Source of the DNA: a virus | Lineage: Duplodnaviria; Heunggongvirae; Uroviricota; Caudoviricetes | IMG/VR virus record: IMGVR_UViG_2877973648_000001 | Span: 1-20,998 of that record | DNA length: 20,998 bases | Reading direction: 5' to 3' (one strand) | In this document: one piece after another, positions 539-18,160 of the stretch | How the letters are laid out: every line of letters starts with the position of its first letter | How positions within the stretch are numbered: the stretch's first letter is position 1 | Translations under genes and position numbers: made by a program | The notes under the pieces: model-generated | Told to the model about the DNA's origin: nothing | The model's input: the letters and a program-made list of their open reading frames with translations, nothing else | Databases searched by the model: none

Positions 539-1039
539 ATGGAAAAGGAAAAAAGAAATGACCTAAAGGGTCAGGAATTACCACATGTAAAACAAGCACT
601 ACGAGTATGGAATAATTTTCACTCAAGAGTACGTAATAACATCAATTACAGTACTGTTACCATCTGCGATGACTGGTATCGGTTTAGTGATTTTTATTAT
701 TGGTATGTTGAAAATGTTGTTGATGGTTGGCATTTAGATAAAGACATATTAGGAGGTAATGAGTACAGCCCAAGTAACTGCATCTTTGTACCGAGAGAAG
801 TAAATCAATTGTTCCGTAAAGTACCAACATCATTATCAACCGGTGTTGTCGTTAATCATAAGGGCTATCAAGCACAAGCAACATTTGATAAGAAAGTACA
901 TAAGTTTGGGACATACCCAACGATAGAAGAAGCTCATGCTGCTTATGTTGTTGAGCGTAAATCATATATCTATAAAATATCGCAGCAGTATAAAGCATTT
1001 CCAAAACTTAGTGCGGTACTATTACAAAAATCAAAATAA
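539..1039 (+). CDS. HNH endonuclease with C-terminal AP2-like DNA-binding domain (phage homing-endonuclease-like)
   Basis: Track ORF 166 aa. Motif GWHLDKDILGGNEYSPSNCIFVPREVN matches the HNH_3-type pattern (H-x-D...N...N); VVNHKGYQAQATFDKKVHKFGTYPTIEEAHAAYV matches the AP2 domain pattern. Confidence 0.7.
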   Translation: MEKEKRNDLKGQELPHVKQALRVWNNFHSRVRNNINYSTVTICDDWYRFSDFYYWYVENVVDGWHLDKDILGGNEYSPSNCIFVPREVNQLFRKVPTSLSTGVVVNHKGYQAQATFDKKVHKFGTYPTIEEAHAAYVVERKSYIYKISQQYKAFPKLSAVLLQKSK

Positions 1040-2301: not shown

Positions 2302-3180
2302 TTGATTCATATGTACAATTCAGGCAAGGAATATGAAGAACTAGTACGGGATATCCAGCGGTCACTTATTGCAGCTGAGAATATACCAAGCCTCAATAAT
2401 ATTAACATTGAGAAGAATAAAAAGATTAAAGATCGTTCAGGTATTGAAAGGGAATTTGATATCTATTGGGAATTTGAGTTAGGGGGTAATATCTATAGAT
2501 CAGTGATAGAGTGTAAAGATTATTCAACACCAGTATCTATTGAAAAAATTGATGCATATATTGGTAAAACTTCAGACATCCCAGGTCTTAAGCTAATTTA
2601 TGCTACACGGACAGGATATCAGAGTGGTGCAAAGATAAAAGCTGAACAGCACAATATACAGTTGCTTGTTATACGTGGTCAGCAAGAGTCCGATTGGATT
2701 ACTGAAGATGGTGAGCCATTGTTAAAAACAATTCATATGAATATAATTGCACGGACATTACCAGAAATTAAAAATTTTAATGTGCGTGTTGATGGTGCAT
2801 GGTTTAACTCTCAGAGCGACTATAAAGAAGATGATTTCCAAAATATATTTAAAGGAAAGATGAACAATGAGGTCTTCATCAATGATGTTCAAAACAATGT
2901 GAAATATACTATACATGATATACCAAACAGGATTTTCAGTTTGAGTAAAGAACTGAAATATGGCCCTGGTGAATATTTTGAAAAATTCAATGATGGTTGG
3001 CTCGAGGGTTTAGATAGTAAGGTGCGATTTAAAATTACAGAATACCATTGTGATTACGTTTATCGAGAACCTATAGCTAGTACATCCATTATAGATTTTT
3101 CAGAACAAATTAAAGCTATAGTCGAGGATTTTCAGTCGGGCAAGAAAAAATGGGTTATGAATGATGGTAGTGTTAAATAG
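2302..3180 (+). CDS. Mrr-like PD-(D/E)xK restriction-endonuclease-fold protein with an uncharacterised C-terminal domain
   Basis: Track ORF 292 aa (TTG at 2302; in-frame ATG at 2311). EFDIYWEF...VIECKDY...IDAYIGK...GLKLIYATRTGYQSGA follows the D / E-x-K core and downstream layout of Mrr_cat-type nucleases. Confidence 0.6.
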   Translation: MIHMYNSGKEYEELVRDIQRSLIAAENIPSLNNINIEKNKKIKDRSGIEREFDIYWEFELGGNIYRSVIECKDYSTPVSIEKIDAYIGKTSDIPGLKLIYATRTGYQSGAKIKAEQHNIQLLVIRGQQESDWITEDGEPLLKTIHMNIIARTLPEIKNFNVRVDGAWFNSQSDYKEDDFQNIFKGKMNNEVFINDVQNNVKYTIHDIPNRIFSLSKELKYGPGEYFEKFNDGWLEGLDSKVRFKITEYHCDYVYREPIASTSIIDFSEQIKAIVEDFQSGKKKWVMNDGSVK

Positions 3181-3320: not shown

Positions 3321-4013
3321 CTAATTAGAGAAATGGAAAAGATTATTCATGTCCTTTTTAAGTGTTTCATGCGTGTTAATTAAACCTTTAAAAGTGTCAA
3401 CTAATACTTTTCCATAGTTCATGTTGTAATGATATCGCTCAGATATATCATTTATATCAAAATTTATTGCTTCCTTTAAAGTGCTCAGAGCCATTTGATT
3501 GCTGAAAAAATAATTTTTAAAAATGGTTGCATCCTTTGGTGATACCTTCCAAAAAGTAAGCGATTGCAACTCATTTTTTAATGAAGTTAGCTTTATTTGT
3601 AGTTGATCGATAACTTCTTTTTCTGTCCTCACTAAGTAAGCGAAGTCTTTTGGCTCAAAATCAGGATCTGTATTGTTGAGACTGCGTACATTTTCATATG
3701 TTTTTAACATTTCTAACGAAAAAAGATCGCAATTAGTCCAGAACTTAGTAACTTGATTTAATGCATTTTCCTTTATTTTAGTTTGAAACCAATTTTTAGC
3801 GTTCCATGCTGCATATAGGGCTGCCCCTGCCATAATTAGATTGGCGATAGAACTAACCCAATCACTAATAGATCCCCATTCCAATTGGCTACCTCCATGA
3901 AAAAGTACTTTAACCAACACCAATATTGCTACACATAGAAGTACGATAACTGTGGATGCAAGTATTCTATTTGTTATTTTAATATTCACATGAAGTACTC
4001 GAAACTCAACCAA
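3321..4013 (-). CDS. membrane-anchored hypothetical protein (N-terminal TM helix, helical C-terminal domain)
   Basis: Track ORF 230 aa; hydrophobic segments ILASTVIVLLCVAILVLVKVLF and IANLIMAGAALYAAW near the N-terminus; no recognisable catalytic motif. Confidence 0.5.
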   Translation of the reverse strand: MVEFRVLHVNIKITNRILASTVIVLLCVAILVLVKVLFHGGSQLEWGSISDWVSSIANLIMAGAALYAAWNAKNWFQTKIKENALNQVTKFWTNCDLFSLEMLKTYENVRSLNNTDPDFEPKDFAYLVRTEKEVIDQLQIKLTSLKNELQSLTFWKVSPKDATIFKNYFFSNQMALSTLKEAINFDINDISERYHYNMNYGKVLVDTFKGLINTHETLKKDMNNLFHFSN

Positions 4014-4216
4014 TAATGATGGATGTTAACATTTGGGAAAGTGAATCGTAAATATTAATTTTCTGTACCCATCAGTGCTACTTAAATTTAACTTAAGGTT
4101 AGTTATAATTATGGTGTTGATAATGATCACAAATTATATGAAAAAATTGCTCTCTCTCCTGAGATCCCGATAACATAAGACATTACATATCAGCATCATA
4201 CAACAAAGGATTAGAA

Positions 4217-4945
4217 ATGAACCGGAAGCAATTCATCCAGTCGCACGGAGCTACTTGCAGTAACTGGACGTGGAGTTGGTCATTTGTTAACCATGAAAAG
4301 AAGATGGTCATCTTTGGGTCATGGGATGTTGAGAGTGAACAAGAGCGGTCAGTCATTCTTCGAGAGCGTTGGGAGTACAACTCAAACAACAAAAAACAAC
4401 TGGGATACACCCAGGCACTGGAACACGTCAGGTTAGTCCATGAAGGCTACGAACTTTACACCTTCAATATGGTTTTCGCAGAACACCCGGATAACCCTGA
4501 AATTGCAGTTATCAAGGATTTTGAGCGTAAATTAAACAAGCGATATCTGCGTAAAGAAGGCGTTGTTTGGTATGCAGACTTCTTACCTAATCCATTCCCT
4601 GATGAAATTCCTTCAGGAGAGAGTTTTGTTGAAGGTGCAAAGACTCAAGTAACAGTGAACTACTACGAACGCGATCCAAAGGCCAGACAAGCCTGCATCC
4701 AACATCACGGTACTACCTGTAAATGCTGTGGTTTCGATTTTGAGAAGGTCTATGGTACACATGGCCGTGGATTCATTCATGTACATCACATCAAGCCGCT
4801 TCATACGATTGGGGAAAACTATGTGGTCAACCCCGTAACAGATATGGTCCCATTATGTCCAAATTGCCATGCAATGGTACATCGTGGGAGCAAAGTACTT
4901 TCAATTGCAGACTTGAAAGAGAAAATGACCTTTTGGAGCGAGTAA
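4217..4945 (+). CDS. HNH nuclease-domain protein with an uncharacterised N-terminal domain (candidate type IV restriction / defence nuclease)
   Basis: Track ORF 242 aa; AAAGGA 7 nt upstream of ATG. C-terminal CKCCGFDF...GFIHVHHIKPLHTIGENYVVNPVTDMVPLCPNCHAMVH is a zinc-finger HNH motif (C-x2-C ... HH ... N ... C-x2-C-H). Confidence 0.7.
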   Translation: MNRKQFIQSHGATCSNWTWSWSFVNHEKKMVIFGSWDVESEQERSVILRERWEYNSNNKKQLGYTQALEHVRLVHEGYELYTFNMVFAEHPDNPEIAVIKDFERKLNKRYLRKEGVVWYADFLPNPFPDEIPSGESFVEGAKTQVTVNYYERDPKARQACIQHHGTTCKCCGFDFEKVYGTHGRGFIHVHHIKPLHTIGENYVVNPVTDMVPLCPNCHAMVHRGSKVLSIADLKEKMTFWSE

Positions 4946-5806
4946 ATGGATTTATCACAATTGAGTAACGTCGAATTGATGCAACTGAATCAGTTGACGC
5001 TTGATGAGTTAGAACGACGAGAGGTTATCAGAACCAGAAACAATCCTATCAGTGAGTACACTGAATGGCTGGTTGCGGATAAGATGCAAATGGTACTGGC
5101 TGCACCTAGTACTAAAGGGTATGACGCTACAACGATTGATGATCGAAAAATTCAGATTAAGTCTCGTAAGAATAATTTAAAAAACAAATCATTAATTCTT
5201 GGGATTATCAGAAATTATGATCTGAACCAATTCGATGAGCTCATTGCCGTAATATATAACCATGATTTCTCAATTCGTTATGCTGTATCCATACCACATG
5301 AATTAGTGAAGGAATATGGTTTTTATAATGAGCACCAGAATGGTTACACTTTAAGAATCAGCAATTTATTACTTAACGATCCACGTGTAACAGACATCAT
5401 TGAATTTATTGATCCAGACACTGAACGTTCAAAGGAAGAGATCACGGTGAAGCCAGATTCAAACACTATCCGGGATCTACAGACAATAGGAATGCAGACA
5501 TTTATTGAGTACTATCAGTATGTTGAAAGTGGTATGAACACAACTGATCTTGTTGAAAAGATGGTAACTGACCATCCAGAATGGAAGGAAAGTACTGCAA
5601 GAACAAAGGCATCTTCAATGCGAAGAGTATTCAAGAATGGCGACAACGTTGAAGCACTAAAAATCATCTATAAGTCGAATCACTCAGCAATAACGGATGA
5701 GATTAAGAGTAAACTTATGACGCTTTGTGAACCGCTCCGGTTTTCCTGGAGAGTATTTTGCCTGAGTGATCAGGCTGCCACATCCCGGTCATTCAGCGAA
5801 GCGTAA
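4946..5806 (+). CDS. hypothetical protein translationally coupled to the HNH gene; native C-terminus replaced by IS-derived codons
   Basis: ATG at 4946 directly follows the upstream TAA (TAAATG). The IS629-like end lies at 5728, so residues after ...KLMTL are read from IS sequence. The reconstructed native gene ends ...MTLWDK (263 aa) using 9306-9314. Possible PD-(D/E)xK-like motif GYDATTIDDRKIQIKSRK. Confidence 0.55.
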   Translation: MDLSQLSNVELMQLNQLTLDELERREVIRTRNNPISEYTEWLVADKMQMVLAAPSTKGYDATTIDDRKIQIKSRKNNLKNKSLILGIIRNYDLNQFDELIAVIYNHDFSIRYAVSIPHELVKEYGFYNEHQNGYTLRISNLLLNDPRVTDIIEFIDPDTERSKEEITVKPDSNTIRDLQTIGMQTFIEYYQYVESGMNTTDLVEKMVTDHPEWKESTARTKASSMRRVFKNGDNVEALKIIYKSNHSAITDEIKSKLMTLCEPLRFSWRVFCLSDQAATSRSFSEA

Positions 5807-6242
5807 TAGGCTTTTTCTGCCTCCACTGGCGGGATATATCCGGTCCGTTCCATCAATCGGTGATTATTGTACCAGTCCACCCATTTCAGCGTAGCCAGCT
5901 CAACATCCTGTCGGGTTTTCCAGCTTTGCCTGTGGATCACCTCCGCTTTGTACAACCCGTTGATACTTTCTGCCATCGCATTGTCATATGAGTCGCCCGT
6001 GCTGCCTGTTGAAGCCAGCAGCTCCGCGTCCTGCAGCCGTTGCGTGTACGCCAGTGACACATATTGCGAACCTTTGTCGCTGTGATGGATGGTACCGCTC
6101 GGGCGTCTGGCCCACAGCGCCTGCTCCAGTGCATCCAGCACGAACGACGTTTCCATCGTGGATGAGACCCGCCAGCCCACGATAACACCGGCGAACACAT
6201 CAATGATGAAGGCCACATATGCGAACCCCTGCCAGGTGCTGA
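5770..6242 (-). CDS. IS3-family transposase OrfB, C-terminal exon (downstream of the group II intron)
   Basis: Translation ...STWQGFAYVAFIIDVFAGVIVGWRV...DSYDNAMAESINGLYKAEVIH... is the DDE catalytic/C-terminal region of IS3-family OrfB; the track ORF 5770-6216 begins at an internal GTG. Confidence 0.75.
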
Positions 6243-8512
6243 GTAGAGTAAGAGGCAGGGCGTAGTCGGACTATTTCCCTGCCTCTCCTCCCCGAACCGG
6301 ACGTGCACCTTTCAGCGCATCCGGCTCTCCATTTAAATGCTGGCGAACGCCATTGCCACTTCTGTAAAGCGCGATGTATACGTGTTTCTGGTCTCCGTCC
6401 TCAGATAGGGATTACCTTCGGGTAGCCGCCAGCGGAACAGCTTCTTGCCTTGCCCCACCAACCGGTACAGTATTTCGCCGCTGAGCTTGCCGTGATTGGT
6501 TTTACCAAATAAAACCCACGTTTTGCTCTGACCCGGTTTCGGTGATTTACACCACCACCTCATCAGGGAAGCGATACCTGTACGGTATTTGCGGGCCAGC
6601 CAGTGAGCCAGCTTCCAGAACACGACACGGTCGATATAACTGAAGACTTTGGCCTTAAAATCAACGAACTGATAGAACATGGCCCAGCCTTTCAGTTTTC
6701 GGTTGAGTTGTTCAGCCATATCGACTTTGCTTTCACTGTAGTTGCCTGATAACAGTGCTGTCAGCGATGCGGCGAAGTTTCTGGCTTTCTCCTGCGGGAT
6801 CGTTGAGACCACTCGCATCTCGCCATAACGACTGCGTTTGCGAATGATCCTGTGCCCCAGAAAGATAAAGCCGTCATTAACATGGGTGATTTTAGTCTTA
6901 TCCATGTTCAGCCTGAGTTTCAGACTGCCTTCGAGCACACCCCGACACTCCTCCCTGATGGCTTCCGCCTGTGCTTTGGTGCCTTTGACGATGAGGACAA
7001 AATCATCGGCATAGCGGCAGTACGCCACCGCGGGTTTCCACTGCCAGTTTTCTCTGACCGCCGTACTTCGGCCCCGTTGGATACTGTTATTCCAGTACCA
7101 CCGATCTTTTCTGGCTTTCCCGCTCAGGTAGCGCTCATGCAGGTATTGATCGAACTCATTCAGCATGATGTTCGATAATAGCGGCGATATAACACCGCCC
7201 TGTGGCACACCTTCACTGGCCGCCCGAAAGAGACCGACATCGATATGTCCCGCCTTGATGGTTTTCCACAGCAGAGTCATGAAACGTGCGTCACTGATCC
7301 TGCGGCGTACAGCCTTCATCAGCAGTCGATGATGTACGGTGTCGAAGTAACTGGACAGGTCGCCTTCAATCACCCAGCGTCCCCGGGTTTCACCACAGTC
7401 TGTGAGCTGTAATTTCACCGTGCGGATCGCGTGGTGGACACTGCGCTCAGGCCGGAAGCCATATGAGAGCGTATGAAAATCACTCTCCCATATCGGCTCC
7501 ATCGCCATCAGCATGGCCCGCTGAACAATACGATCCCGCAACGCGGGGATACCCAGTGGTCGCAGTTTGCCGTTGCTTTTAGGGATGTAAACCCGTCTGG
7601 CGGGCAAGGGCTGGTAGTGGCCTGAGAGTAATTCATCCCTGAGGATTTGCAGCTCAACAGCCAGTCTGGCCTGTAGCATTGTTTTGTTCACGCCATCAAC
7701 GCCGGGGGTATGGGCCCCCTTTGATGAAAGCGTGATCCGCGCCGCTTCAGCCAGCCATTCTGGTTGTGTTATCAGACGCAGCAGCCGTTGAATCCGTAGG
7801 GACGGATCGGTGACTGCCCATGTGGCAAGCTTGCGTTGCATTTCGCTGATTATCAAAGGTCTTCACCTCGTTAGGTCAGTTAATTCACGTCGCAAACACA
7901 TTCAAACTGCTTCCCTTCGCCATGTAATGGGCTTTCCCCATCGCGGACTACTACGGAAGCTCCGCCAGCCAGCGCGTCATCGGAGCCATGCCCCCTTAAC
8001 ATCCGTCGCTGACCTTCCCCGGTTTACCTGCCTGGACTCAGGCATACTGAGGAGGCTGCCCGTCGCACTCTTTATCCTTGCTTGCCGCAAGTTGGCAGAA
8101 GTCAGCAACGCAAGCGTGATAGACGCTGCTGCCCCGGTGTTTCGCATACATGTCAAAACACCTTCGACCGGCAGTGCTTACGTATCACTGCCAGTTCCTC
8201 CTGCACGGCCTGTCAGATCACGTAGGCCGTGGTGACGTTTTCAACCCACAGAGGCGGATTAACGGGTTCATGTTCTTCAGCCTTTCAGTACTTAACCTTG
8301 AGGATCATCTCGGCTTAGTGATCTCGCCTCAATCCCCGTTGTCAGCGGGTTACATCACCCTGCGGGCATGCCGCAGGTCACTGCCGCTCAGGTTCTCCAC
8401 CGTCACACCCGGTGGGATTGTTGGGTTTCTCATCGTGAGTTACCGGTTCAATATTCCAGACAGACTCGCGGTTCATTTAAGCATCCATGCCCGCCCTGAA
8501 CTCCGGGCACAC
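6243..8512 (-). mobile_element. bacterial group II intron inserted in the IS629-like orfB
   Basis: Minus-strand 5' end GTGTGCCCGGAG (GUGYG consensus) starting at 8512; domain V GAGCCGGATGCGCTGAAAGGTGCACGTCCGGTTC at 6294-6327; domain-VI-like stem and 3' end ...CTAC at 6243. Joining the flanking exons gives a continuous OrfB (...ADFTY-V-STWQGF...). Confidence 0.8.
6333..7856 (-). CDS. group II intron-encoded reverse transcriptase/maturase
   Basis: Track ORF 507 aa with RT motifs (...RPLGIPALRDRIVQ..., ...YCRYADDFVLI...) and a maturase X region; ORF ends just upstream of domain V, as is typical for an ORF within domain IV. Confidence 0.85.
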   Translation of the reverse strand: MIISEMQRKLATWAVTDPSLRIQRLLRLITQPEWLAEAARITLSSKGAHTPGVDGVNKTMLQARLAVELQILRDELLSGHYQPLPARRVYIPKSNGKLRPLGIPALRDRIVQRAMLMAMEPIWESDFHTLSYGFRPERSVHHAIRTVKLQLTDCGETRGRWVIEGDLSSYFDTVHHRLLMKAVRRRISDARFMTLLWKTIKAGHIDVGLFRAASEGVPQGGVISPLLSNIMLNEFDQYLHERYLSGKARKDRWYWNNSIQRGRSTAVRENWQWKPAVAYCRYADDFVLIVKGTKAQAEAIREECRGVLEGSLKLRLNMDKTKITHVNDGFIFLGHRIIRKRSRYGEMRVVSTIPQEKARNFAASLTALLSGNYSESKVDMAEQLNRKLKGWAMFYQFVDFKAKVFSYIDRVVFWKLAHWLARKYRTGIASLMRWWCKSPKPGQSKTWVLFGKTNHGKLSGEILYRLVGQGKKLFRWRLPEGNPYLRTETRNTYTSRFTEVAMAFASI

Positions 8513-8927
8513 CGTAGGTAAAATCGGCCACCCAAAGACTATCGGGCCGTTCAGCCACGAACTGCCGGTTCACCCGATCCTGCGGTGTTTCGGCTTTGTT
8601 GCTGCGGGTGGTTCTGACACTTTTGCCGCGTGTCACCCCACGTAGCTGCAGGGCTTTCATCAGGCGCTCAATGGTGCAGCGGGCAACGCCGACACCTTCA
8701 CGTTTTAGCTGTCGCCAGACCTTACGCACACCGTAAACGCTGTAGTTTTCTTCGTATACGCGCTGTATCTCAGGTATCAGCACGGCATCGCGTTTATCCC
8801 GACTACTGCGTCGTTCAGGACACTTCCGGCGTTGCTGATGCCAGTAGTACGTTGACGGAGCAATATCCAGCTCATGACAGACTGGCCCGACCCCGTGTTC
8901 ACCGCTCAGATTTTCCAGAAGCGGCAT
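8513..8927 (-). CDS. IS3-family transposase OrfB, N-terminal exon (interrupted by the group II intron)
   Basis: Translation MPLLENLSGEHGVGPVCHELDIAPSTYYWHQQRR...RPDSLWVADFTY; after Y (codon 8514-8516) the sequence enters the intron. The track ORF continues to 8448 reading intron sequence. Confidence 0.75.
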
Positions 8928-9268
8928 TATTTTTTCCAGTGGCGGTCGAGCTCCGCCTGGGCAAAATACGCTGAAGCCTGACGCAGAATATCATTGCTGC
9001 GGCGCAGCTCGCGGACTTCCCGCTCCAGTTCTTTCAGACGCTGGCGTTCGCTGGCAGTCAGCGCATTCTGCTCATCATCAACGGGCTCCTGCTGACGGAT
9101 CCAGATACGCAATGTCTCGGGAGTGCAGCCGATCTTAGGGGCAATGGAGCAGATAGCGGCCCATTGTGAGTTGTAGGTATTCTGGTTTTCCAGAACCATA
9201 CGAATAGCGCGTTGACGAACTTCAGGGGGAAATCGGTTATGTTTTGTCATCCTGGTTACCTCTCTCAA
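8927..9268 (-). CDS. IS3-family (IS629-like) transposase OrfA, helix-turn-helix protein
   Basis: Track ORF 113 aa: MTKHNRFPPEVRQRAIRMVLENQ...LKELEREVRELRRSNDILRQASAYFAQAELDRHWKK; stop overlaps the orfB start (ATGA). Confidence 0.85.
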   Translation of the reverse strand: MREVTRMTKHNRFPPEVRQRAIRMVLENQNTYNSQWAAICSIAPKIGCTPETLRIWIRQQEPVDDEQNALTASERQRLKELEREVRELRRSNDILRQASAYFAQAELDRHWKK

Positions 9269-9415
9269 AGAGTGTAGTCTCCAGGATTACCGGGGCGGTT
9301 CATTGGGATAAATGAACAAAGTTTTGGTTATATTTTTGATGCAAAAAGATATAATTGTAGTACTTCCACCTTTCGCATTTGGGTAGGTTTGTTTGGGCGA
9401 TTGGTGGAAGTGCTA

Positions 9416-9908: not shown

Positions 9909-10418
9909 ATGAAACTCGAACATTGGGCAGTTCCTATTACGTCTTTGGACGGTATGTTACTCGGCGTAGAGCTGGAAACCCGTGTACTGATAAACGGTTG
10001 CCGGGTACTGATGGGGGCAGGAAAGGAAAGTGAATACATTCGTCACGTGGTCTATCAGAACCAGTTAAGAATGATTCAGGGCAAAGCCGCATGGTTCAAA
10101 GAAAAGGGGGTGTTGTGCGTGCTCAGTACTGGCACAGGTACACGCTATGAAGATCTACCATTCATACGGTACATGGCTGCTGAACCGCTGCTAACGGACG
10201 GTTACGACTTAGTTCGACTAAATAGACGGTTCACTGAGGAATACATAGAGCGGTTGATCTTCCCGGTACTCATTAAGAACATCATGCAGTACTGCGACAA
10301 GGTGATCGTACAAGTCAGCAGCAACCGAAATCACAGGATTTTACGAGAGTCGGGCATATGGGCAGTACAGGGAGAGTACAGGCCAATCCGCTTTGAACAA
10401 TGCGAACAACTTCTATAG
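9909..10418 (+). CDS. hypothetical protein with EAL-domain-like N-terminal motif (short, probably degenerate)
   Basis: Track ORF 169 aa; WAVPITSLDGMLLGVELETRVL resembles the start of EAL domains (QPIvsL.g.l.GvEaL.R), but the protein is too short for a complete EAL phosphodiesterase. Confidence 0.45.
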   Translation: MKLEHWAVPITSLDGMLLGVELETRVLINGCRVLMGAGKESEYIRHVVYQNQLRMIQGKAAWFKEKGVLCVLSTGTGTRYEDLPFIRYMAAEPLLTDGYDLVRLNRRFTEEYIERLIFPVLIKNIMQYCDKVIVQVSSNRNHRILRESGIWAVQGEYRPIRFEQCEQLL

Positions 10419-10869: not shown

Positions 10870-12024
10870 TCAACGTAGCATGGCTAATGTTCTGGAAATT
10901 CTTATTATATCCTTCTCAATATCATCTAAAACAGGAGTTGAGTTTCTGCTTCGCTCTGCAATTTCTTGCAAAATATATCTATTTAAATGGTTGTTAACAT
11001 TTTTAGGGTCAAGGTTTTCTGGTGTGGGAACAACACAGCACTGCCAATAAAAAATCTCATCTTCAAAATGATTTAGCCATTTAGAATGATATTTTTCTTT
11101 CGATTTTTTCTTGTTAAGGACATAAATGCTAGCCGCAGCTACCACATCCGCAATTTGTATACCATGCGTGACTTTAGAATCAGAAAGAATCATTGGCTCA
11201 GATAGCTTAAATGTGATCGGGATTTTTTTATCATGAAAAGTCTCGAACACAATCTCATCATTGCCTATCATCTCATTGAATGAGTCCTGATGAGTAATTA
11301 ATGGTTTTGAGCTGTCGCATATAGCTCTCAATGTACCAAACTTACTACTCATATCGCACAGGAGATTATAAAGAGAAGTCGTTGTCAAATCTAATAACCA
11401 CTTATCAATCCCAGTACCCTCAAGGCCTTCATATTCTTCTTCAATTATAGAGATGTTATTCTTGGCGAAATCATGAATGTCCATCATAATTTCAGAATTT
11501 TTAGAACCAACAACTGGTTCGATAAAACTATTAACCAATATTTTACCTCGTGAAAAATCTTCAAATCGCGAATGTAATAGTTCTGAATATTCATCCTTAG
11601 CTATTAAAGAAAAATACATTATATTTGAGATGAATAGGTGAAATTTAAGGTTGTAAAAAATTGAGCTTTTAGCTGCTAATACTGGCTCAAAAATATATTC
11701 GAAGAATTTTCCTGAGAGGGCATATTTTTTTTCGTTTACAACCACACGCATACGACCACGGAAATGATTAAGTATTTCATCTACGGCTGGTTGAAATCTC
11801 TTGCTATTTACGAGAGTGCTACCTTTTAGCTCTTCGGCTGCGATCGAGTACTTGTTTATTATATAATCAACAAACTGTTTACTTTCCTCATCATCAGTCA
11901 CGACTGCTGCGTAACTAAAAAAAGGCTGATCTTTTGAAAGTAAGTTATTACCAGTGAATCCTGATTCATCGAAATATACATTCTTTACCAATTTGGTCAT
12001 TCCTTTATGAGCTACAATGTGCAT
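10870..12024 (-). CDS. DUF3800-like protein (conserved DESG motif near N-terminus, Q-x-AD motif near C-terminus)
   Basis: Track ORF 384 aa; ...VYFDESGFTGNN... and ...HGIQIADVVAAASIYV... match my recollection of DUF3800 signature motifs. True start uncertain (ATG 12024, ATG 12000 or TTG 11991). Confidence 0.55.
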   Translation of the reverse strand: MHIVAHKGMTKLVKNVYFDESGFTGNNLLSKDQPFFSYAAVVTDDEESKQFVDYIINKYSIAAEELKGSTLVNSKRFQPAVDEILNHFRGRMRVVVNEKKYALSGKFFEYIFEPVLAAKSSIFYNLKFHLFISNIMYFSLIAKDEYSELLHSRFEDFSRGKILVNSFIEPVVGSKNSEIMMDIHDFAKNNISIIEEEYEGLEGTGIDKWLLDLTTTSLYNLLCDMSSKFGTLRAICDSSKPLITHQDSFNEMIGNDEIVFETFHDKKIPITFKLSEPMILSDSKVTHGIQIADVVAAASIYVLNKKKSKEKYHSKWLNHFEDEIFYWQCCVVPTPENLDPKNVNNHLNRYILQEIAERSRNSTPVLDDIEKDIIRISRTLAMLR

Positions 12025-12203: not shown

Positions 12204-12767
12204 TTAGCAAAGTACAACACCTATTTCATTTAACGCACAATCGCAATGACGGTTTGTCGGACATTCGCATAATTTGAATACTGCATAAGATCCTTTAAGG
12301 GTATCGGTTACATACTTGTCCATTTCTTCAACTACAGATGATGAGCAATATAAATGAAAACCAACACAGAAAGAATTTCGCATCGGATACTTACATTCTT
12401 GTATAGAGTTGAGTTTCAAATGGTCTGCTTGCAATCCTCTTTTTAAGGCAGATGAACGCTTAGTACATTTCAGCTCAATAAAGATATAGTCTTCAAAAAG
12501 GGTATCTTTTTCTCTCATTATTATATCGATTTTTGAGAGCTTGCTTGCAGGGAAATTATTAGGGGCAAGAAAAGCTGTAACTTCACGTTTAACTTCATAT
12601 TTTCTTTTTTTGTTAAGGAAGTGCTCAAATTCAATTTGTAGCCATTTTTCCCAATCATTAGTTTCATTACTGACGAAGGAATACAGACGCCTCTTTATAT
12701 CTTCATTCTTTAGGAAGCTATTCAGTAACTTTACCAGCAAAGAAAAATCATTGTTGCGGTCTGACAT
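12204..12767 (-). CDS. hypothetical PD-(D/E)xK-like nuclease-fold protein with C-terminal cysteine cluster
   Basis: Track ORF 187 aa; KIDIIMREKDTLFEDYIFIELKCTK fits D ... E-x-K spacing; C-terminal CVGFHLYC...CECPTNRHCDC is Cys-rich (possible metal site). Same strand as, and upstream of, the DUF3800-like gene. Confidence 0.5.
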   Translation of the reverse strand: MSDRNNDFSLLVKLLNSFLKNEDIKRRLYSFVSNETNDWEKWLQIEFEHFLNKKRKYEVKREVTAFLAPNNFPASKLSKIDIIMREKDTLFEDYIFIELKCTKRSSALKRGLQADHLKLNSIQECKYPMRNSFCVGFHLYCSSSVVEEMDKYVTDTLKGSYAVFKLCECPTNRHCDCALNEIGVVLC

Positions 12768-12781
12768 AGTGATCTCAATAA

Positions 12782-14027
<1,246 letters not shown>

Positions 14028-14900
14028 TCTTGACCCTCCATCTCCGAACAGCTTTTGTATCTTAAGTTAACGATGTCCGCTGCCGCCGGTATTCCCTCGG
14101 GGAGTGATATCCCAGCGCGCTGTGCGGGTGGTTTTCATTGTAATGCGTGAACGCTACTGCAAGGTTTCGCAGTGCTGTTCTCACATCCGGTTTTGGCATG
14201 AACGCGATATAGTCTTCTTTCATCGTTTTCACGAACCGTTCGGCCATGCCATTACTCTGCGGGCTGCTCACCGCTGTTGTGCAGGGCTCCAGATTCAGCT
14301 CTCTCGCGAACCTCCGCGTTTCATACGCGGTATACGCTGAACCGTTATCCGTCAGCCACTGCACCGCTGTGTCGGGCAACCTGTCGCCGAAGCGCTTTTC
14401 CACCGACCTCAGCATCACATCCTGCACGGTCGAACTGTCATAGCCTCCCGTGCTTGCTGCCCAGTCTATGGCCTCACGGTCGCAGCAGTCCAGCGCGAAC
14501 GTTACCCGCAGTTTTTCGCCGTTGTCGCAGCCGAACTCGAAGCCATCTGAACACCAGCGCATATCGCTTTCTGCCACCGCTATCTTGCCCTTATGTTCAA
14601 GCTTCGGTCGCTCTGGTTTGTGATGCAACAACAACAGGTTATGCTCGCTCATTATCCTGTAAAGCCGTTTGGCATTCACAGGTGGCTGTCCCTCTGTGCG
14701 ACGTTGCTTGCGCAGGATGCCCCACACGCGTCGATAACCATAACTCGGCATATCGCTGATAATGTTGAGGATAGCCGACAGTATTTCTGCGTCTGCTTCT
14801 TCATTACGCCGGTTACAGCGCCTGTCCTGCCAGTCGGCAGAACGGTTAATCCGCAGTGACAGTTGCGCACGCGACACGCCCATGGTCCGGCTGACCATGG

Positions 14901-16871
<1,971 letters not shown>

Positions 16872-17039: not shown

Positions 17040-17303
17040 ATGAAGAAGCGTTTTTCCGACGAACAGATCATCAGTATTCTCCGCGAAGCCGAAGCTGGGG
17101 TACCCGCCCGTGAACTCTGCCGCAAGCATGCCATTTCCGATGCCACGTTTTACACCTGGCGTAAGAAGTATGGCGGTATGGAGGTGCCTGAAGTTAAGCG
17201 CCTGAAGTCGCTTGAGGAAGAGAACGCCAGACTCAAGAAGCTGCTTGCCGAAGCCATGCTGGATAAAGAGGCGCTTCAGGTGGCTCTTGGGCGAAAGTAC
17301 TGA
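17040..17303 (+). CDS. IS407-group transposase OrfA
   Basis: [49 protein letters not shown]...[15 protein letters not shown]... closely resembles IS407 OrfA as I recall it. Confidence 0.8.
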
Positions 17304-17326
17304 CGACAGACCAGAAGCGGGAAGCC

Positions 17327-18160
17327 GTGATGTTGATGTGTGATGCGACCGGTCTGTCGCAACGTCGTGCCTGCAGGCTTACAGGTTTATCCCTGTCGAC
17401 CTGCCGCTATGAGGCTCACCGTCCGGCTGCTGATGCGCATTTATCAGGGCGCATCACTGAGCTGGCACTGGAGCGCAGGCGTTTTGGCTACCGTCGTATT
17501 TGGCAGTTGCTGCGCCGTGAAGGGCTTCATGTTAATCATAAGCGCGTGTACCGGCTTTATCACCTCAGTGGCCTGGGCGTAAAACGCAGAAGACGTCGTA
17601 AAGGGCTGGCAACAGAACGTCTGCCGCTGCTCCGTCCGGCGGCGCCCAATCTGACCTGGTCGATGGATTTCGTCATGGACGCACTTTCCACCGGTCGCAG
17701 GATCAAGTGTCTTACCTGCGTCGATGATTTCACAAAGGAATGCCTGACGGTCACTGTTGCCTTTGGGATTTCAGGCGTTCAGGTCACGCGTATTCTGGAC
17801 AGCATTGCACTGTTTCGAGGCTATCCGGCGACGATAAGAACTGACCAGGGGCCGGAGTTCACTTGCCGTGCACTGGATCAATGGGCCTTTGAGCATGGTG
17901 TTGAGTTGCGCTTAATCCAGCCGGGCAAGCCAACGCAGAACGGATTTATTGAGAGCTTTAACGGACGATTTCGCGATGAATGTTTGAATGAGCACTGGTT
18001 CAGCGATATCGTTCATGCCAGGAAAATTATTAATGACTGGCGGCAGGATTATAACGAATGCCGCCCGCACTCCACGCTGAATTATCAGACACCGTCTGAA
18101 TTTGCAGCGGGCTGGAGAAAGGGTCATTCTGAGAATGAAGATTCCGACGTTACTAACTGA
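17327..18160 (+). CDS. IS407-group transposase OrfB (DDE integrase)
   Basis: Track ORF 277 aa with ...[10 protein letters not shown]...[56 protein letters not shown]... (rve-type catalytic core). Confidence 0.8.

Follow-up and report, generated by a model that had tools for sequence, protein, structure and literature searches.

Tandem genes for a candidate HNH-type and a predicted BisI-family modification-dependent nuclease in a decayed prophage-like island of Escherichia coli

When the stop codon of one nuclease gene abuts the start codon of the next in a mobile element, do the two products form one system, or are they separate enzymes that have come to lie side by side? The question is raised by a stretch of 20,998 nts (the window), positions 1 to 20,998 of the IMG/VR virus record IMGVR_UViG_2877973648_000001 (Caudoviricetes), in which an open reading frame (ORF) for an HNH nuclease, ORF A, is directly followed by ORF B, here called the partner. 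An earlier note, made from the letters alone, took the pair for an undescribed two-gene defence module. That view did not survive: the partner is a full-length homologue of the restriction endonuclease Eco15I, and the HNH family stands without such a neighbour in 80 of 80 species loci. The explanation preferred here, and held with moderate confidence, is that these are two separate single-protein modification-dependent nucleases, stacked among the variable accessory genes of a prophage-like island now in decay. The defence role that the note had suggested is itself likely.

The partner gene and the BisI family

The catalytic domain of the partner matches the solved structures of Eco15I (8q5m, E 3.6e-34) and NhoI (8q5n, E 1e-18). 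The PADLOC model mREase_II, for type II methyl-directed restriction enzymes, matches residues 1–154 (E 1.6e-62), and Pfam DUF6998 scores 26.6 bits, just below its 27-bit cut-off. Pan13I (WP_014606222; member P0153 in a 90%-identity cluster) matches across the whole catalytic domain, with 72% identity over 153 residues and 85% similarity. These matches rule out an unknown family, and the statement in the earlier note that the partner had no recognisable one was wrong. BLASTP against full-length Eco15I gives 33% identity over residues 19–244 (E 2e-44) and continues through the C-terminal domain (partner 182–244 with Eco15I 206–268); a profile of that domain picks up all two-domain relatives.

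The possible D...Q-x-K motif of the note is real and is the BisI-family active site (D60, Q70-I71-K72). Partner E40, Y59-D60 and Q70-I71-K72 align with Eco15I E49, A68-D69 and Q79-I80-K81, active-site residues whose mutation abolishes Eco15I activity (PMC11347163). Two residues of the methyl pocket are also kept, R89 (Eco15I R98) and H130 (Eco15I H139). On the catalytic-domain matches, the active site and the homologous C-terminal domain, the partner, as judged from its sequence, joins the Eco15I subfamily (a BisI domain followed by the C-terminal domain) as a new member; the BisI family is a characterised one, of enzymes that cut G5mCNG5mC. Full-length matches, at good confidence, to something already characterised were named in the note as grounds for refutation; the partner has one, the HNH protein has none.

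Pan13I has been purified and cuts GCNGC with 3–4 5-methylcytosines (5mC) better than with 2 (PMC4926085), and both Pan13I and Eco15I cleave DNA alone in vitro (PMC4926085, PMC11347163). Lambda DNA modified by Dcm is not cut by BisI-family enzymes (PMC4926085). For the C-terminal domain of Eco15I, Bochtler, Xu and colleagues saw neither DNA binding nor an effect on specificity, and Eco15I without the whole of it stays active (PMC11347163).

The 3′ end of the partner gene as it now stands is not its own. Alignment to an intact 263-aa homologue in E. coli MB19 ends at residue 260, and matches to the end of an insertion sequence (IS) that many plasmids and genomes carry start at window 5726–5728 (a search of a plasmid collection matched the IS end only). 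Since the point where the alignment stops and the point where the IS matches start coincide, the last 26 codons are IS3-family sequence. The partner, given as 263 aa in the earlier note, exists as an ORF of 286 aa, of which only residues 1–260 are native. Intact homologues have 260–263 aa and that of Buttiauxella is naturally 260 aa long, so at most three native residues have been lost, the last 0–3 codons and the stop having been replaced. Because the insertion leaves the ORF essentially complete, and because Eco15I is active without its C-terminal domain, the partner is probably still functional despite its tail.

The HNH protein and its N-terminal domain

The C-terminal zinc-finger HNH motif described earlier for ORF A is genuine. 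Pfam HNH matches residues 168–223 (E 2e-6), the domain is similar to those of EcoKMcrA (6ghc, E 1e-6) and ScoMcrA (5zmm, E 3e-3), and PADLOC mREase_IV also matches it (E 3.8e-8). In an alignment of 36 homologues from many phyla, C168, C171, C214, C217, H190, H191, N216, H218 and H222 do not vary. Homologues number more than 4300, most of them about 240–260 aa and full length, and most members of the family are chromosomal, across many phyla. Some are in defence islands, as in Pseudomonas putida, beside a Gabija-like OLD/UvrD pair and GmrSD, and in Pectobacterium, beside a reverse transcriptase-like gene. A literature search with four RefSeq protein accessions of these proteins found no paper. 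The gene is a candidate for a type IV modification-dependent restriction enzyme.

An alternative is that the HNH protein is a phage housekeeping or selfish nuclease, packaging-associated or homing, that is next to a restriction gene by chance. The element is prophage-like, with terminase genes about 8 kb from the HNH gene; the protein matches PHROGs HNH families, and a homing-type HNH_3-like ORF lies nearby (539–1039). However, the terminase genes are not adjacent, and the HNH domain is closest to those of the McrA and ScoMcrA restriction enzymes. No full-length homologue of the protein was found in 50,697 deposited phage genomes (in deposited phage genomes there was none of the partner either). 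The family is mostly chromosomal, in many phyla, with some members in defence islands. Moreover, its N-terminal domain has been exchanged between types of nuclease and also occurs with EVE and DUF3427, as is typical of type IV enzymes. The alternative is, accordingly, very unlikely.

That N-terminal domain was said in the earlier note to be unplaceable, and for about 125 aa this holds: nothing in Pfam, NCBIfam or PADLOC, or among PDB sequences, matches residues 1–125. A profile of 30 N-terminal-domain sequences found nothing among PDB sequences, and Pfam, searched with the domain and 30 homologues at E up to 10, gave no match at all, SAD_SRA, EVE and YTH included. The domain carries an invariant signature, GATCxNWxWSWSF...FGAWD. 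AlphaFold models it confidently, with a predicted local distance difference test score (pLDDT) of 88.5 and a predicted template modelling score (pTM) of 0.82 on its own, the full-length protein having a pLDDT of 82.9.

NOV_C is a restriction-endonuclease-like domain, and it is one of several with which the N-terminal domain is joined. An exhaustive profile search gave 309 clusters of the domain at 50% identity, in architectures that include domain+HNH, domain+NOV_C, domain+DUF3427+NOV_C, domain+MUG113, EVE+domain+HNH and VWA+domain. One domain swapped among unrelated nuclease modules, and paired with EVE or DUF3427, is a pattern described for type IV modification-dependent enzymes (PMC6765204; PMC11347163). 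These architectures are independent support for a sensor role.

The N-terminal domain could have a fold other than that of an SRA-like base-flipping reader, for example a degenerate PD-(D/E)XK-like or a novel DNA-binding one, and respond to something other than 5mC or 5-hydroxymethylcytosine (5hmC or hm5C), such as another hypermodification, DNA damage or DNA structure. Matches from Foldseek against PDB were weak and mixed (MspJI, Hjc, EcoRV, SwaI), with the best E at 0.19 and none significant, which together with the missing profile matches to SAD_SRA, EVE and YTH would fit such a domain. If this strain of E. coli carries the methylation normal for the species, by Dcm (C5mCWGG) and Dam, the HNH enzyme must tolerate those marks, and this too leans the same way. 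On the other side, E50, the acidic residue that came into question for an active PD-(D/E)XK site, is not conserved, and such a site was rejected; the order EVE-domain-HNH, moreover, mirrors the SBD-SRA-HNH of ScoMcrA. A fold or target of this other kind is rather unlikely. The NEco domain of McrA was also considered as the identity of the N-terminus and was rejected.

Linkage of the two genes

The two ORFs and their TAAATG junction, as the earlier note gave them, agree with the ORF calls and the sequence. A GGAG stands 7 nts before the partner ATG, and the AAGGA motif before the HNH gene also precedes its homologue in E. coli MB19. At the equivalent junctions of other loci (L007, L002, L004 and L094; compared loci carry L numbers) the sequences are TAAATG, TAGTAATG and an overlapping TAATGA. 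No promoter-like site was found upstream of 4217 in a simple sigma-70 scan. The pair is probably co-transcribed and translationally coupled. Against the 83%-identical copies in E. coli MB19 (L002), the ratio of nonsynonymous to synonymous substitution rates (Ka/Ks) is 0.046 for the HNH gene, and for the partner 0.054 in the N-terminal and 0.13 in the C-terminal domain; from these values both genes are real and under purifying selection.

Does the HNH family need the partner? The HNH-side sample comprised 80 loci, taken from as many species-representative genomes; their HNH proteins are 39–97% identical to ORF A. It was searched within 5 kb by tblastn and with profiles of the BisI and C-terminal domains. 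A BisI-like ORF was found in none (0/80), not even beside the HNH proteins that are 97% (L014) and 87% (L016) identical to that of the window. In a Buttiauxella locus that has the same prophage backbone and an HNH protein at 97% identity, an unrelated 226-aa ORF comes next. A same-strand ORF starts within 60 nts of the HNH stop in 18 of 76 informative loci; these ORFs are mutually unrelated, and among the 76 there is no recurrent downstream partner.

(An unannotated ORF of 191–226 aa fills the slot after the HNH gene in L014, at 5798–6478, and in L010, at 4321–4896. It replaces the BisI-like gene in the former, a Buttiauxella metagenome-assembled genome, and is between the HNH and BisI-like genes in the latter, from Pantoea agglomerans; the two have a local motif in common, ADAPIGYGFDGINL / ADEPDGYGFDCITL.)

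From the partner side, taken as the Pan13I/Eco15I-like clade at 59% identity or more, pairing is common. The HNH family is directly upstream of the partner in the window and also, at another insertion site (ffs/ybaA), in nine further E. coli genomes; the same holds for Enterobacter roggenkampii, Buttiauxella, Pan13I-type Pantoea loci and the majority of those metagenomic and viral contigs that extend far enough upstream. An extra gene separates the two in L010, L113 and L131. Five loci (L013, L107, L128, L129 and L130) have the partner and no HNH gene, and beside BisI relatives at 28–44% identity the HNH gene was never found. Eco15I, EcoBLMcrX and BisI have been published next to other genes with no adjacent HNH nuclease mentioned (PMC4926085, PMC5487053), nor is a recurrent HNH-BisI tandem mentioned in PMC4926085 or PMC11347163. 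The conserved co-occurrence that an undescribed module would call for is therefore absent from the HNH side and, from the partner side, the rule with five loci outside it. An obligate two-component system is ruled out by these counts.

Some observations nevertheless weigh against the preferred reading, that of two separate and working enzymes. In about 80% of the informative loci of the Pan13I clade the HNH family is directly upstream, with stop and start mostly abutting or overlapping, a linkage stronger than simple stacking predicts. In L098 a 186-nt spacer separates the genes, and identity is only 45% between its HNH protein and ORF A but 61% for the partner, a difference that hints at selection for the combination. 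As for the partner itself, H130 is followed by Q131 where the published (H/R)(V/I/T/M) motif has V, I, T or M (V140 in Eco15I); the HQ form is also present in the active Pan13I. The 26-residue IS-derived tail, lastly, might impair the enzyme.

A rival reading is a cooperative two-nuclease system, in which the proteins interact physically, or work one after the other on one modified DNA, and selection acts on the tandem as a unit. In its favour are the abutting or overlapping codons in most loci, recurrence at two places of insertion in E. coli as well as in Enterobacter, Buttiauxella, Pantoea and metagenomes, the combination in L098, and an Eco15I-type C-terminal domain that has no assigned function in the literature (PMC11347163). 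Set against these are the 0/80 HNH-family species loci with a partner, those with 97%- and 87%-identical proteins included, the five loci where the partner lacks the HNH gene, and the ability of Pan13I and Eco15I to cleave alone in vitro (PMC4926085). Furthermore, all paired loci belong to one family of elements with a serine recombinase, a CI repressor and a GpA terminase, so that shared descent explains much of the linkage. Nor does the C-terminal domain track the HNH gene: Pan13I-type partners without the domain are coupled to it, whereas Eco15I and the partners of L128–L130 have the domain and no HNH gene, which rules out Eco15I_Ctd as an adaptor to the HNH protein. Cooperation of this kind is, on balance, quite unlikely. 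There is a similarly small chance that the N-terminal domain is a previously uncharacterised class of modified-DNA sensor, or that coupling to Pan13I/Eco15I-type enzymes is real cooperation.

On the preferred reading, with the two as separate enzymes, the partner would dimerise on GCNGC carrying 2–4 5mC or 5hmC and cut within the site. The N-terminal domain of the HNH protein would sense a modified base and an HNH dimer would cut nearby, as with TagI, ScoMcrA and VcaM4I. Each would act independently, neither requiring the other, which would be consistent with Eco15I, Pan13I and EcoBLMcrX being active alone; together they could widen the exclusion of methylated or hydroxymethylated phage and plasmid DNA by the host or the element.

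Current understanding is not overturned by the tandem or by its parts. The partner is one more predicted Eco15I/Pan13I-type enzyme, of value mainly as a REBASE-style annotation. The HNH protein points to a large and widespread reader-HNH family whose reader domain is absent from the domain databases searched; if that domain binds a modified base, it would be a new sensor module, possibly with a new specificity for the type IV epigenetic-mapping toolbox. Pan13I-type enzymes, so far studied in isolation, usually follow a second nuclease gene in one operon in the elements that natively carry them, and the tandem thereby bears on a question posed in PMC11347163, that of the natural threats from which BisI-family enzymes give protection. 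If cooperation were true, it would give a possible role to the Eco15I C-terminal domain.

Setting of the pair and its known relatives

Window 4000–5760 matches the E. coli AREA_C483 chromosome (NZ_CP123310.1) at 100% identity, and in the annotation of that chromosome a low-GC island has its insertion site between yeaG and mipA. A serine recombinase gene opens the island; terminase, lysozyme-like and other phage-type genes are carried, and several IS elements and a group II intron interrupt it. The window is a decayed, IS-riddled prophage-like element. The setting described in the earlier note, an accessory region with an IS and other nuclease genes, is as found. Coordinates are collected in Table 1.

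Table 1. Positions in the window of the two genes, their parts and neighbouring features
Feature	Position	Strand	Remark
166-aa ORF	539–1039	+	phage HNH homing-endonuclease PHROGs (phrog_953, E 1e-37), their C-terminal part only
292-aa ORF	2302–3180	+	weak Mrr_cat (restriction endonuclease) match, residues 53–122, E 0.0016
230-aa predicted membrane protein	3321–4013	-	without family match
Shine-Dalgarno-like AAGGA	4206–4210	+	6 nts before HNH-gene ATG; read from sequence
HNH nuclease gene (ORF A), 242 aa	4217–4945	+	ORF; annotated HNH endonuclease WP_053263680.1
N-terminal domain of HNH protein, residues 1–125	4217–4591	+	unannotated; possibly SRA-like sensor
Linker, residues 126–147	4592–4657	+	predicted disordered; pLDDT <50 in full-length model; variable in alignment
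McrA-type HNH (beta-beta-alpha-Me) domain, residues 148–226	4658–4894	+	Cys4 zinc site
Coupling junction	4935–4948	+	GGAG in 3′ end of HNH gene; TAA 4943–4945 abuts ATG 4946–4948
Partner ORF as it stands (ORF B), 286 aa	4946–5806	+	
Native part of partner gene, residues 1–260	4946–5725	+	predicted BisI-family / Eco15I-like type IIM modification-dependent restriction endonuclease
BisI-type PD-(D/E)XK catalytic and recognition domain, residues 1–155	4946–5410	+	
Partner active-site codons	E40 5063–5065; D60 5123–5125; Q70-I-K72 5153–5161	+	
Eco15I_Ctd-like C-terminal domain, about residues 175–260	5468–5725	+	aligned to Eco15I C-terminal domain
IS-derived tail	5726–5806	+	26 codons and stop fused to partner ORF; not native
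Rfam Intron_gpII matches	6243–6329		
ltrA (reverse transcriptase/maturase)	6333–7856		in group II intron
ALIL frameshift pseudoknot	8856–8972		within IS3-family element
169-aa ORF	9909–10418	+	C-terminus like end of EAL cyclic-di-GMP phosphodiesterase (NCBIfam PRK11596, E 1e-5)
DUF3800 protein	10870–12024	-	phrog_12991, E 8.5e-119
187-aa ORF adjoining DUF3800 gene	12204–12767	-	without match
IS1222-type frameshift element	17270–17387		ISSen4

The IS3-family element whose end is fused to the partner occupies 5727–9330 (-) and is itself split by the group II intron; both halves of its transposase are annotated as pseudogenes. The terminase large-subunit gene is disrupted by an IS3-family insertion and followed by IS5 and ISSen4 (13269–15699, 14062–15296, 15709–16725 and 17040–18160), and with this gene broken the prophage-like element is clearly defective. 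In the AREA_C483 annotation there is no methyltransferase gene next to the pair or anywhere in the window. The closest to be annotated lies about 16 kb from the pair, at the far end of the same island just past the right end of the window (L001 37043–37753), and its product would need to be compatible with both modification-dependent nucleases.

Among the other genes, the 292-aa ORF with the weak Mrr_cat match has none in PADLOC, PHROGs or NCBIfam and may be a third nuclease-type defence gene of the same variable region. The membrane-protein ORF may mark the edge of a variable hotspot; ORFs resembling it (compared by their translations and not by alignment) occur on the flanks of HNH or BisI cassettes in related elements, such as L014 4050–4763 and L128 6647–7387. 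The 166-aa ORF is probably a remnant, truncated or domain-only. The position of the 169-aa ORF is held by full EAL genes in Pantoea elements (L010 7893–8570). The DUF3800 gene and its 187-aa neighbour lie in the interval from the IS to the small terminase gene and may be additional genes for accessory or defence functions. In L094, a Pan13I-type element, a DarT/Macro (DarTG-like) pair at 6779–8340 is about 1.3 kb downstream of the HNH-BisI pair, which identifies the region as a hotspot for defence genes.

Of the characterised enzymes, Eco15I (E. coli 541-15; type IIM; PDB 8q5m, 8q5o) shares the two-domain architecture of the partner. It has a BisI catalytic domain followed by a C-terminal domain of about 100 aa, the same E/D/QIK site, the counterparts of R98 and H139 kept in both, and no adjacent methyltransferase. 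It differs in its neighbours, an XRE regulator and IS1 with no HNH gene (PMC4926085), in having V140 where the partner has Q131, and in lacking the IS-derived C-terminal tail of the window copy. Pan13I (Pantoea ananatis PA13) resembles the partner in its catalytic domain, HQ motif included, and is unlike it in being 157 aa long, without the C-terminal domain. Its cluster representative at 90% identity, P0135, which stands in for the locus of Pan13I itself, has the HNH family directly upstream with stop and start overlapping, in the same kind of element. EcoBLMcrX, also a BisI-family enzyme, is the classical activity of E. coli B that in vivo restricts T4gt, a phage with hm5C, and its gene is in a genomic island, in an operon of two genes from which it is expressed (PMC5487053); its upstream gene is an 81-codon regulator, and the protein, of 15.9 kDa, is without the C-terminal domain.

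For the HNH protein, the nearest parallels in layout are TagI, ScoA3IV (SRA-HNH) and ScoMcrA (SBD-SRA-HNH), which have a reader domain directly N-terminal to a Cys4 HNH. The TagI chain, at 285 residues, is of similar size, and the HNH-domain sequence resembles that of ScoMcrA. Unlike these SRA-HNH enzymes, the HNH protein gives no SAD_SRA match, is only 6–9% identical to them and has no significant Foldseek match. EcoKMcrA (NEco-HNH, PDB 6ghc) has a similar HNH domain, joined there to a NEco N-terminal domain that was not found in the protein of the window.

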